Position numbers and translations under genes: made by a program. A stretch of DNA of 64,000 nucleotides from Alphaproteobacteria bacterium (GTDB lineage: Bacteria > Pseudomonadota > Alphaproteobacteria > GCA-2731375). Positions 24,258-27,721 of the stretch are shown here, piece after piece. The DNA lies in the NCBI GenBank assembly GCA_965232515.1, contig CBDDPY010000002.1, positions 3,584,001-3,648,000 on the forward strand. Direction: 5' to 3'. Positions within the stretch are counted from its first letter, which is position 1; every line of letters begins with the position of its first letter. Under the pieces are notes generated by a model, which saw only the letters and a program-made list of their open reading frames with translations, did no database searches and had not been told where the DNA came from.

Positions 24258-25112
24258 TTGCGGCAAGGTCTGAGGGAAATCCAGGCTCGCAAATGCCCGA
24301 CGGCTGGTGTGCAAGCGCGAGGGAAAAAATTCAGGCGTGTGATTTCTGGACCTCGAACCCGACGGCCGGGATTGCGCCGGCTTTCCGCGCTCCCGCTGCT
24401 GCCGCTACTGTTGTTGATGCTGGCATTTCCCGCCACCGCCACCGCGCGGCTGGTGATCAACACGACATCGGCGCCGCCGCTCGCCGATGACCGGCAGGCC
24501 GGATTCCAGGACCTCCTGACGTTCGAGATCTTCAGGCGAATCGGTATCGAGGTCGAGGTCCATCGTCTGCCAGGCGAACGCTCGCTGATCAATCTCGAAA
24601 AGGGTATCGATGACGGCACGGTCGTGCGCACGGCCGGCCTGGAAGGTCTCTACCCGAACATGCGCCGCGTGCCGGAGCCGATGATGCGTTGGGAGTTCGT
24701 CGCCTTTGCCAAGGACGTCGACTTCTCGCCCACCGATTGGCGCAGCCTTCGCCCCTACAACGTCGCTTTCATCAACGGCTGGAAGATCGTGGAGGCGAAC
24801 GCCACCGAGGCGAAATCGGTAAAAACGGTGCGGGACCCGAAACAGCTATTCGGGCTTCTGCAGAACGACCGGGCCGACGTTGTCGTCTTCGAGAAATGGC
24901 AGGGCCTACAGATGTTGCAGACGCTTCGGCTGGAAGGGGTAAAGTTGTTGGCGCCGCCTCTGGCCGCGCAGGACATGTACATGTATCTGCACAACCGGCA
25001 TGAGGGCCTGGTCGCGAATGTTTCGGCAGCGATCAAACAAATCAAAGAAGATGGCACCTACGAGCGCCTGTTCGACGAAACCTTGAAACCGCTACTGCGC
25101 GACGGACGTTGA
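24258..25112 (+). CDS. Periplasmic substrate-binding protein (family 3-like); true start may be later, e.g. GTG 24339
   Basis: Signal-like LLPLLLLMLAFPATATA, LPGERSL...G.DDG...R, LLQNDRADVVV, IKEDGTY..L; 4-nt overlap with the kinase. Confidence 0.75.
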   Translation: MRQGLREIQARKCPTAGVQARGKKFRRVISGPRTRRPGLRRLSALPLLPLLLLMLAFPATATARLVINTTSAPPLADDRQAGFQDLLTFEIFRRIGIEVEVHRLPGERSLINLEKGIDDGTVVRTAGLEGLYPNMRRVPEPMMRWEFVAFAKDVDFSPTDWRSLRPYNVAFINGWKIVEANATEAKSVKTVRDPKQLFGLLQNDRADVVVFEKWQGLQMLQTLRLEGVKLLAPPLAAQDMYMYLHNRHEGLVANVSAAIKQIKEDGTYERLFDETLKPLLRDGR

Positions 25113-27721
25113 CCCAACGGTTGCCCCATTTGCAGCGTTTACGGCTATCGCGCCGTCCGATCGCCCGCCGGCTTATCGTTGCGGTCGTGCTGTTCAGTTC
25201 CTTCATCACGCTGATAACGACGGCGATACAGCTCTATCTCGACTACGAGCAGGGTATCGCGGAAATCGAGGACGAATTCGAACAGATCGTCGCCAGCAAC
25301 CTGGACAGCCTGATCAACAACGTATGGGTGTCGGACAGAGGTCAGGTCCAGACCCAGCTCAACGGCATGCTCAGCCTGCCGGACATCGAAGAGCTCACCA
25401 TCACCGTCGATGGGAATATCGAATGGTCGGCCGGGAAAGAACAGTCCGACAACTTCATTTCAAGGCAGTACCCATTGGTTTTCAGGTATCGCGATCAGGA
25501 CCTGACGATCGGGATACTGCAGGTCACGACGAGCCTCGACGCGGTCTACCAGCAATTATACGACAAGGTCCTGGTCATCCTGCTGGGCAACGGCGTCAAG
25601 ACCTTTCTGGTGGCGGGGTTTATCCTCGTCACGTTCCAATATCTGGTCACGCGTCATCTTCAGACGATCGCCGAGTATGTACGCGGATTTGGCGCCAGAC
25701 ATCCGATCGTGCCGTCGCTGACATTGGATCGTCGGCACAGCACGACGGCGGACGACGAGCTGGACGAGGTCGTCTCCGCGCTCAACCAGATGCAATCCGA
25801 CCTGAACAGCTCCCACGAAGCGCTCATCCTGACCAACAAGGCCATCGCCGGGGCCGACAGCGGGATCATGATCACCGACCCCCGGCAGGACGATAACCCG
25901 ATCGTCTACGCCAATCCGGCCATCGAGCGGATGACCGGATACGCCGCCGACGAGCTGATCGGACATAACCCCCGGATTCTGCAGGGACAGGATCGGGACC
26001 AGCCGGCCCTGGAGGAAATCCGCCAGGCATTGGCGGCGAGGCGGCCGGTTCAGGTCGTGCTGCGCAACTACCGCAAGGACGGCTCGCTTTTTCTCGATGA
26101 AATCCAGATATCGCCGGTATTCAGCGACGCCGGCGAACTGACCCACTTCGTCGGCATCCAGCACGATATCACCGAGCGCCGACGCTCGGAGGAGCAGCTT
26201 CGGGAGAGCGAAGAACGTCTGCGCTCGGTGCTGCAGACGGTACCGGACGCAATCGTCACGATCGACGAACTGGGGACGGTCGAATCCTTCAGCCCCCACG
26301 CGGAAACGATGTTCGGTTACGCCGCCGTCGAGGTGATCGGCCAAAACGTCCGAATGCTGATGCCGCCACCCATGCGCGACGAGCATGACCGGTATCTTGC
26401 CCGCTATCGGGACACCAAGGAGAAGCGGATCATCGGCACCGGCCGGGAGGTGAACGGCCAACGCAAGGATGGTTCGATATTCCCGCTCAATCTGGCCGTC
26501 AACGAAATGCAACTCGGTGGACGCCTTATGTTTACCGGTTTTCTGCGCGACCTCACCGGCGAGAAGAAGCGCCTGGAAGAACTTCACCAGGCGCAGAAGA
26601 TGGAGGCGTTGGGTCAGCTCACCGGCGGTGTCGCCCACGATTTCAACAACCTGCTGACGGTCGTGCTGGGCAATCTGGAAATGCTCGAGATGCGCGCGGG
26701 CGAGGATGATCGTCTGCAACGCCTGATCCAGCAGGCCATGGAGGCCACCGAACTGGGCGCCGACCTGACGGGCCGATTGCTGGCCTTCGGTCGCCGCCAA
26801 CCGCTTGAACAGAAGGTATTGAACCTGAACGATGTCATCTTGACCACGTCGCAGATGCTGCGCAGCGCGGTCGGCGAAGCCGTGCAGATCAGCACCGTAT
26901 TGGCCAATGATCTCGGCGGCGTCGAGATCGATCCCAGCCAGTTCGAGAACGCGCTGTTGAACCTCGCTATCAACGCCGGCGACGCCATGCCCGACGGCGG
27001 ATCGCTGGTGATCGAAACCGCCAATGCCGAGATCGACGAGGTCGCCGCCGCCCAGTTGGAGGATCTGACGCCCGGCGACTATGTCTTGCTGTCAGTGAGC
27101 GACACGGGCACCGGCATGACGCCTGACGTGCGGGAGCGGGCCTTCGAACCATTCTTCACGACCAAGGGCGCCGGCACCGGTACCGGTCTCGGCCTCAGCA
27201 TGGTTTACGGATTCGCGAAACAATCAAACGGCCATGCCCTGATCTACAGCGAGGCCGGCGTGGGGACCAACGTGAAGCTGTATTTCCCGCGTGTCCGCGG
27301 TGACGCGAGGGGAACCACAACGGAGGCCTTGGCAACCGCGACGCCAGGAGGTCGGGGCGAGACCATCCTGGTGGTCGAAGACGATCAGCGCGTTCGGACC
27401 GTCACCCTGAGCCGTCTGGCGGAACTCGGTTATCGGACGATCGAGGCCGAGGATGGCCCGACCGCCCTGACGCTGCTGGATCAGGGCATAGCGGTCGATT
27501 TGATTTTCACCGATATCGTCATGCCGGGCGGACTGTCCGGGATCGACCTGGCCGAGGCCGCGGACCGGCGCCGGCCCGGATTGAAGATATTGTTCACCTC
27601 CGGCTATGCCGAACCGGCCGTGCTCCGGGATCATGCGCAGATCGATGCGGCCAGCCTGCTGCGCAAGCCCCACAGCCTTGCGGAATTGGCAGCGAAGGTC
27701 CGGCAGGCCTTGGACAGGTAA
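25109..27721 (+). CDS. Hybrid sensor kinase: 2TM periplasmic (CHASE5-like), HAMP, LOV-like PAS, FixL-type heme PAS, HisKA-HATPase, REC
   Basis: [13 protein letters not shown]...[17 protein letters not shown]...GQNV.MLMP...EHD.YL.RY....IIG.GR...[30 protein letters not shown]. Confidence 0.9.

Follow-up and report, generated by a model that had tools for sequence, protein, structure and literature searches.

FixL is the textbook single-input oxygen sensor, whose haem PAS domain carries a proximal His and a distal Arg, the latter tied to O2 discrimination; we know of no cofactor for the first PAS domain of classical FixL proteins. In the hFixL-FxkR-FixK cascade of Rhizobium etli and R. leguminosarum (johnstonii) 3841 (Zamorano-Sanchez 2012, via a citing paper; the available text of Rutten et al. 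2021, PMC7888657), a receiver is fused to the FixL-type kinase, the partner regulator is of the OmpR type, and the regulator gene diverges from a Cys-less fixK gene with direct hexamer repeats in between. According to the same text, fxkR9 and fixK9b are adjacent with a K-box between them, and the chromosome carries an fxkRc-fixKc-hfixLc cluster. Another group of sensors, comprising LuxP-LuxQ, TorT-TorS, ScrB-ScrC, NspS-MbaA and GlnH-GlnX, depends on binding proteins: in the accessible portion of a review (PMC8050422), the binding-protein gene lies beside the membrane sensor gene without a transporter, the small extracytoplasmic sensor domain binds the protein rather than the ligand, and ScrB and GlnH belong to SBP_bac_3. 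Here we analysed two overlapping genes at positions 24,258 to 27,721 of a 64,000-nucleotide stretch of an alphaproteobacterial genome (assembly GCA_965232515.1, contig CBDDPY010000002.1; hereafter the window), which encode a binding protein and a hybrid sensor kinase. The reading we favour, and hold to be fairly probable, is that they belong to an hFixL-FxkR-FixK oxygen-response cluster in which a binding-protein/CHASE5 module and a LOV-like module have been added to the kinase.

The locus is composed as follows.

24339..25112, + strand: binding-protein gene, likely start GTG at 24339 (mechanical open reading frame 24258..25112)
25109..27721, + strand: hybrid sensor kinase gene, 870 aa, hFixL type with added N-terminal modules, TTG start
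27734..28549, - strand: OmpR-family response regulator gene (Pfam Response_reg and Trans_reg_C), candidate FxkR, convergent with the kinase gene and divergent from fixK
28570..28595, + strand: direct repeats resembling the K-box, GTCACA-gact-GTCACA-ttcc-GTCACc, 106-131 nt ahead of the start of the fixK-like gene
28701..29423, + strand: gene for a Crp/FNR regulator that resembles FixK and lacks an N-terminal Cys cluster (Pfam matches cNMP_binding, HTH_Crp_2, Crp)

The downstream part of the locus resembles the rhizobial hybrid cascade in both sequence and order. Compared to the Rlv3841 pRL9 genes, which were identified by their coordinates in Rutten et al. 2021 (PMC7888657), the kinase shares 45% identity with hFixL9 over 643 aa, end to end from residue 234, the regulator 53% with FxkR9 over 245 aa (E 2e-90), and the Crp/FNR protein, which has no N-terminal Cys motif, 42% with FixK9b. 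The best plasmid matches of the regulator are regulators of Rhizobium, Sinorhizobium and Ensifer (52-57% identity), and the FixK-like protein matches best the NCBIfam FixK and FnrL models, in both cases sub-cut-off. The published FxkR K-box is GTTACA-N4-GTTACA (PMC4999443, PMC7888657, in their available text), and the regulator/fixK intergenic region holds GTCACAgactGTCACAttccGTCACc at 28570-28595 with a 10-bp period, giving two overlapping matches to the K-box-like pattern versus 0.18 expected in the window. The pRL9 K-box reads GTTACAAACTGTTACC towards fixK9b, an orientation relative to fixK as at the present locus. The order of kinase, convergent regulator (50-53% identity) and divergent FixK recurs in four of 80 metagenome loci, and a fifth shows just the kinase and the regulator; the relatives encoded in all five lack CHASE5. 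Among four related regulator/FixK intergenic regions, the K-box expression matches in one (L068), and the other three have looser TACA repeats. Moreover, ccoN of the genome has a perfect anaerobox, TTGATCGAAATCAA, upstream, which fits a FixK/FNR-type regulon. A link to FixK, suggested in an earlier note on this DNA, thus proved stronger than noted there, with an FxkR-like regulator, a K-box-like repeat and a FixK-like gene immediately downstream, and we consider the O2/FxkR/FixK core very probable.

The only perfect consensus K-box of the genome, GTTACAACTTGTTACA, lies elsewhere, at C2:2349846-2349861 (L047:5847-5862), flanked by a second gene for an OmpR-type regulator and by a 167-aa open reading frame of no family. 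Its neighbours are glucan-synthesis genes (mdoG/mdoH-like; MdoG, glycosyltransferase) and CoA-transferase genes, with no fix-type gene nearby; the site may serve as a further target of FxkR or have arisen by chance.

The kinase is arranged in the order transmembrane segment, CHASE5, transmembrane segment, HAMP-like linker, LOV-like PAS (PAS1), FixL haem PAS (PAS2), HisKA, HATPase_c and receiver, with the following elements.

~25157-25243 and ~25565-25654, + strand: hydrophobic segments flanking CHASE5, residues about 17-45 and 153-182, from hydropathy
25241..25558, + strand: CHASE5 domain (PF17149), residues 45-150, Pfam E 3.9e-23, 81.9 bits versus a cut-off of 27
25655..25825, + strand: HAMP-like linker, residues ~183-239, Pfam HAMP sub-threshold
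25862..26176, + strand: PAS1, Cys-less LOV-like domain (PAS_9, residues 252-356), Pfam E 8.2e-33
26213..26551, + strand: PAS2, FixL-type haem PAS domain (Pfam PAS, residues 369-481), Pfam E 1.2e-33
26609..27292, + strand: kinase core, HisKA (residues 501-564; H-box VAHDFNN, His510) and HATPase_c (residues 608-728), from Pfam and motif
27365..27703, + strand: C-terminal receiver, residues 753-865 (Asp802 in FTDIVMPG), Pfam Response_reg E 2e-16 and motif

Both the C-terminal receiver and the periplasmic CHASE5-like domain had been read correctly in the earlier note. The HAMP-like linker named there follows the second transmembrane segment; the Pfam HAMP match (residues 213-233, E 0.087) is below the cut-off, at 13.6 versus 25 bits; HAMP is significant at the equivalent place in the CHASE5-bearing GGDEF-EAL relatives L035, L036 and L040. 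The TTG start at 25109 is supported by the relative P0005, also of 870 aa, whose N-terminus is conserved with that of the kinase from residue 4 onwards. The database copy of the kinase, P0003 (844 aa), starts 26 codons later, inside the first transmembrane segment (window 25109-25186), and looks too short. In contrast to hFixL9, which has 641 aa, no CHASE5 and a first PAS domain that is not LOV-like, the present kinase possesses two transmembrane segments, CHASE5, the HAMP-like linker, a Cys-less LOV-like PAS domain and a coupled binding-protein gene.

PAS2 closely resembles the haem domains of classical FixL proteins, including RmFixL (PDB 1d06, E 2.9e-40), 8js5 (E 9.7e-40) and BjFixL (PDB 1dp6, E 2.8e-39), with about 60% identity to the RmFixL domain over 123 residues. 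As the earlier note had proposed, both haem residues align with those of 1d06: His426 (26384-26386, in EHDRYL) with the proximal His (rdeHdryl versus rheHdgyl), and Arg446 (26444-26446, in IIGTGR) with the distal Arg (iigtgRev versus iigidRvv). The likeness to the FixL-FixJ systems of Bradyrhizobium and Sinorhizobium (1d06, 1dp6, 8js5; E ~1e-39 to 1e-40) is in this His and Arg, whereas the present kinase has no adjacent FixJ-type partner, carries a fused receiver and extra sensory modules, and has an OmpR-type partner. Among eight matches to PAS2 in its own genome, PAS2 is the sole FixL haem PAS found; the next two share 31% and 36% identity with it (31% and 33% by tblastn), and one of them keeps the His without the Arg, the other lacking the His. 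By its residues, PAS2 would bind haem and place the kinase under O2 control.

The gene pair with a 4-nt overlap claimed in the earlier note is present as the open reading frames 24258..25112 and 25109..27721: the junction reads CGT TGA / TTG ACC, and the stop and the TTG start share the four nucleotides TTGA. The start at 24258 given there has to be moved to the likely GTG at 24339, after which the N-terminus is signal-peptide-like, beginning with VISGPRTRRPGLRR followed by a hydrophobic run ending ATATA. The database copy, P0123 (231 aa), starts within this signal peptide (window 24339-24417) and looks too short. Pfam SBP_bac_3 (PF00497) matches the C-terminal part only and sub-threshold, at 18.3 versus 26.4 bits; the family is present in some homologues. 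The AlphaFold (AF2) model has a pLDDT of 94.9, and Foldseek search with it revealed glutamine-, arginine- and cystine-binding proteins at E ~1e-16, with TM-scores of 0.67-0.75 and 13-21% identity. The family-3 identity claimed earlier therefore holds by fold (TM about 0.7 to GlnBP/ArgBP) rather than by Pfam score, and on this model the binding protein is a divergent member of the two-lobed family-3 (type II PBP) fold. Its subfamily is small, with 49 proteins at E <= 0.001 among 2471 candidates. The contigs listed for P0124, P0127 and P0130 have the lengths of those listed for the CHASE5 kinases P0004, P0008 and P0013.

No permease or ATPase genes accompany the binding protein. Within 14001-38000 of the window we found no ATP-binding cassette (ABC) ATPase signature, defined as Walker motifs plus LSGGQ in an open reading frame of at least 150 aa, in agreement with the earlier claim that ABC transporter genes are lacking nearby, and transporter families were absent from the 15 open reading frames scanned at 17.5-34.3 kb. 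A one-genome-per-species scan with the 13 closest subfamily members gave 28 loci with binding-protein homologues, in alpha-, beta-, gamma- and deltaproteobacterial, Magnetococcales and spirochaete metagenome-assembled genomes (a single spirochaete locus, L041). In 23 of the 28, the open reading frame directly downstream has CHASE5 above the Pfam cut-off (23 of the 27 scanned, L044 having no downstream open reading frame of at least 150 aa). The four misses comprise L020 (a 165-aa open reading frame with no Pfam match), L024 (a weak sub-threshold DUF2238), L034 (none) and L043 (a HisKA_2 kinase without CHASE5). The outputs of the 23 CHASE5 proteins vary, with nine kinases, six hybrid kinases, five GGDEF-EAL proteins, two HisKA_2 kinases and one cut by a contig end, and an ABC ATPase signature is nearby in one of the 28 loci. 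A pairing kept across classes and with such varied outputs is hard to explain without a functional link, and a real sensory role of the binding protein through CHASE5 is, in our judgement, likely.

CHASE5 was reportedly first described by Zhulin et al. in 2003 and, to our knowledge, has remained a domain of unknown function since it was named; a search of the open-access literature found no paper on its function, the subscription literature, including the original description, lying outside that search. The AF2 model of the domain (pLDDT 84.7) shows a long helix continuous with the first transmembrane segment, a short helix, a four-stranded sheet and the helix of the second transmembrane segment. 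Foldseek gave one match at E <= 0.001, the integrative WalK-YycH model 9a5d, and weaker matches to the WalK extracellular domain (4ywz), the LapD-like periplasmic domain (4u64), CitA and LuxQ (2hj9, E 0.26), the last being the LuxQ periplasmic domain in the LuxP-LuxQ complex. In several of these proteins, the domain is bound by a partner protein and not by a small ligand; we take the likeness of the model to them as a lead. CHASE5 is rare. Of 401 genomes of the class, 14, among them this one, encode it, 11 with scores above the cut-off; it was found in none of three genomes of the same family, and the own genome has a single copy. Six further CHASE5 loci of weaker score had no upstream binding-protein gene in the four scanned with Pfam (L012 and L016 left out). 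A second recurrent context was seen in three loci of one genus (L005, L007 and L009), where CHASE5 genes stand beside a divergent PF03601 (Cons_hypoth698) membrane-protein gene.

The docking of the binding protein on the periplasmic domain, raised in the earlier note, is weakly supported by complex prediction. The mature binding protein with CHASE5 reached ipSAE values of 0.48, 0.48 and 0.47, compared to 0.00 for the best of three controls; the runs agree in at least 86% of contacts, and partner pLDDT is at least 89. The pass mark is reached by 116 of 157 solved complexes and two of 215 mismatched pairs, and at ipSAE <= 0.60 by 18 of the 157 solved complexes and both passing mismatches, counts that hold only roughly here as our own alignments were used. 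Solved complexes of binding proteins with sensors exist, so the predictor may recall such a likeness. Compared to the LuxP-LuxQ-type systems, the present one differs in its CHASE5 sensor domain, its separate and divergent binding-protein subfamily and the added haem and LOV-like sensors, and the word CHASE does not occur in the accessible portion of the review of binding proteins in signalling (PMC8050422). We lean slightly towards the view that CHASE5 is a docking domain for transporter-free family-3 binding proteins rather than a small-molecule receptor. The two proteins would then form a portable extracellular module plugged into kinases, hybrid kinases and cyclic di-GMP (c-di-GMP) enzymes, and here into an hFixL, so that an outside metabolite would gate the FixK programme together with O2 and flavin redox.

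PAS1 is most similar to genuine LOV photoreceptor domains, its nearest relatives being Cys-containing ones. It matches the Pseudomonas short LOV structure 7r5n at E 7.8e-38 and is more than 50% identical to flavin-binding LOV structures over about 125 residues. The adduct-forming Cys of GXNCRFLQ is absent: in the motif GHNPRILQ at 25961-25984, Pro288 (25970-25972) stands opposite the photoactive Cys (ghnPrilqg versus yqdCrflqs), as the earlier note had recognised, and two further deviations from LOV went beyond it. The flavin-pocket residues Asn287, Arg289, Gln292, Asn320 and Gln351 are kept. Among the 120 best PAS1-region matches, the motif residue is Cys in 68, Pro in 10, Met in 6, Leu in 4 and Gly in 3, with 38 of the 120 not matching the motif expression; in the CHASE5 relatives that have the motif, the Pro (GxNPRxLQ) is conserved in seven of seven, which suggests selection rather than decay. 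A representative-library search was uninformative on the Pro variant, its best 150 matches being giant multi-PAS proteins. About 70 natural Cys-less LOV-like entries have been described, with Pro among the replacements (Yee et al. 2015, PMC4682037, in the available text). According to that text, the Pro-type BAT-LOV* binds flavin and changes conformation upon chemical reduction, which is complete, whereas photoreduction of the wild-type protein is ineffective; flavin redox sensing is proposed there, as here for PAS1. Flavin binding by PAS1 is plausible from its sequence, and a flavin redox (or light) input through it is a tentative proposal to which we give slightly less than even weight.

The combination of modules is rare. 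Among the 120 best of 7057 kinase matches, most are about 640 aa long and carry haem-type PAS domains in tandem, and counts of haem and LOV-like motifs are two and none in 53, one and none in 31, three and none in 15, one and one in 13, and none in eight. CHASE5 occurs in 11 of the 120; eight of these have the FixL haem motif, and seven of the eight also the Pro-type LOV-like motif. Full-length collinear relatives number only two, P0004 (82% identity) and P0005 (75%); in P0008 and P0009 the haem PAS precedes the LOV-like domain, and P0013 has no LOV-like domain. The architectures in the available part of Supplementary Data 1 of Yee et al. 2015 (PMC4682037) include neither CHASE nor the present domain order, and the earlier claim of novelty stands as far as these comparisons reach. 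Six CHASE5-bearing metagenome loci were considered as further copies and rejected, having no LOV or haem match at E 1e-8; two of the six have a binding-protein match, which is divergent. The 13 proteins with one haem and one LOV-like motif comprise nine of Pro type and four of Cys type. The latter, P0037, P0102, P0105 and P0119, are natural hybrid kinases in which a FixL-type haem PAS motif occurs together with the Cys-containing LOV motif GxNCRxLQ, which makes them possible light-plus-oxygen kinases by sequence; a search of literature titles and abstracts found no description of natural kinases with LOV and haem PAS domains.

Taken together, these features suggest the following route. The haem PAS would sense O2, low O2 permitting autophosphorylation, and the phosphoryl signal would pass to the adjacent OmpR-type FxkR-like regulator, which would bind the GTCACA direct repeats and switch on the divergent fixK-like gene; FixK may then activate anaerobox promoters, for example the promoter of the cbb3 oxidase in this genome. 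On CHASE5, a dedicated family-3 binding protein would dock that works independently of a transporter and whose gene lies upstream and is translationally coupled; through it, an extracellular small molecule could modulate the kinase via the second transmembrane segment and the HAMP-like linker. The Cys-to-Pro LOV-like PAS probably binds flavin and would report redox state, or possibly light by photoreduction. Three inputs, as the earlier note had envisaged, are a reasonable hypothesis: sequence and gene context give good grounds for two of them, and the third is uncertain.

Several points weigh against this reading. The FixK-like protein scores 145 bits against the NCBIfam FixK model with a cut-off of 300, and the kinase 244 bits (244.3) against the FixL equivalog NF041777, a model of non-hybrid rhizobial FixL whose cut-off is 850. 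The repeat hexamer GTCACA differs from the published GTTACA by one base, and GTYACA-N4-GTYACA occurs twice genome-wide, as does a reversed control pattern; the weight of the K-box-like site therefore comes from its location and triple 10-bp phasing rather than its rarity. No Hpt protein was found among the neighbours scanned, though hybrid kinases normally need an Hpt step, and phosphotransfer from the kinase to FxkR could be direct or via an Hpt protein. Among nine strong CHASE5 loci outside the own genome, four have a family-3 binding-protein gene within 1.5 kb on the upstream side examined, on the same strand in L006 and L015 and divergent in L004 and L008, and L002 and L003 have other genes upstream; CHASE5 is therefore not always accompanied by such a partner. 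Complex predictions of the 'weak support' class prove wrong in more cases than not, except where the pairing was probable to begin with. In PAS1, two more conserved LOV positions deviate, Phe to Ile and the second flavin-contacting Asn to Asp, the latter position varying among relatives (D, N, E, V). With positions mapped to YtvA numbering by motif, PAS1 keeps seven of nine conserved LOV residues listed by Yee et al. 2015 (PMC4682037), so that, unlike BAT-LOV* and its kind, it would fail the filter given there for Cys-less LOV* domains (at least nine of the other ten conserved residues); the flavin input is the least certain because of these deviations. Sequence and gene context show how the domains are arranged, that the haem residues are kept, that the setting is of the FxkR/K-box/FixK kind and that the binding-protein subfamily is paired with CHASE5; the haem and flavin cofactors, the ligand and its binding, the contact of the binding protein with CHASE5, the phosphotransfer route, the O2 response and the combination of signals are inferred.

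The alternative that survives best, although we think it unlikely, is a two-input kinase in which the binding protein/CHASE5 and the haem PAS sense, and PAS1 is a cofactor-free transmitter or dimerisation domain descended from LOV. It would account for the missing Cys, the two further deviations including the flavin-contacting Asn and the lack of conservation at that position; P0013 keeps CHASE5 and the haem PAS in the absence of a LOV-like domain, and the first PAS of hFixL9 is likewise not LOV-like. Nevertheless, the remaining flavin-pocket residues and the high identity to flavin-binding LOV structures argue against it, as do the Pro kept in all motif-bearing relatives and the flavin bound by a Pro-type LOV* (PMC4682037, in its available text). 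An improbable variant of the three-input reading has the PAS1 flavin photoreduced by blue light to the neutral semiquinone, so that the kinase would integrate light and O2. Cys-less LOV proteins can signal by photoreduction (Yee et al. 2015, PMC4682037, same text), the nearest PAS1 relatives are photoreceptor domains, and in four natural relatives a haem PAS occurs alongside a Cys-containing LOV; on the other side, photoreduction is ineffective in wild-type BAT-LOV*, and the flavin of PAS1 is itself putative.

There is also a small chance that the kinase is a plain hFixL responding to O2 only, with CHASE5 as a membrane anchor and the binding protein serving an ABC transporter elsewhere or an unrelated periplasmic role. 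The ligand and the contact are predictions, the complex prediction is weak, CHASE5-less relatives work with the same kinase-regulator-FixK layout, and five of the nine strong CHASE5 loci of the class sample have no binding-protein gene just upstream. This view is at odds with the binding-protein gene preceding a CHASE5 gene in 23 of 28 loci from several proteobacterial classes and the spirochaete L041, with the near absence of ABC ATPase signatures there (one of 28) and with the 4-nt overlap of the two genes. Finally, haem PAS domains bind several diatomic gases and the kinase lies below the curated FixL equivalog cut-off, yet a haem PAS that senses nitric oxide, carbon monoxide or the ferric/ferrous state instead of O2 is very improbable, since PAS2 and the RmFixL haem domain are ~60% identical, both haem residues (proximal His, distal Arg) are retained, and the FxkR/FixK context and ccoN anaerobox fit an O2 regulon.

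Around the preferred hFixL-FxkR-FixK cluster, the G+C content is 0.60-0.64 over the binding-protein, kinase, regulator and fixK genes (24001-30000), versus 0.68-0.70 in flanking 2-kb bins; from this dip, the cluster may have been acquired horizontally. Upstream on the opposite strand (19219-24113, -) lie an AMP-binding acyl-CoA-synthetase-like gene and a 2-oxoacid dehydrogenase E1-alpha/E1-beta/E2 cluster, with no evident link of these metabolic genes to the sensor. Between fixK and an MgtC/DUF4010 gene is a 179-aa open reading frame (29513-30052, +), which was considered as an Hpt or FixT-like part and rejected, having no Pfam match even at E 10; it has no tblastn match in any of the loci compared, and its Atlas scores are at most 0.85. 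The window also holds four anaerobox-like sites (13115, 44188, 47150 and 52820; TTGAT-N4-ATCAA with one mismatch) versus 0.57 expected by chance, a number reached in none of 100 shuffles.

If the favoured reading is true, a FixL that reads an extracellular ligand and perhaps flavin redox would make the costly microaerobic programme, with the cbb3 oxidase and the other members of the FixK regulon, conditional on more than O2, and the kinase would be a natural counterpart to engineered LOV-FixL chimeras. The most general value of the finding lies in the binding-protein/CHASE5 pairing, which gives an uncharacterised sensor domain a testable function and brings a further family to the few sensors that depend on binding proteins, one in which a single type of partner would feed both kinases and c-di-GMP enzymes across several proteobacterial classes.

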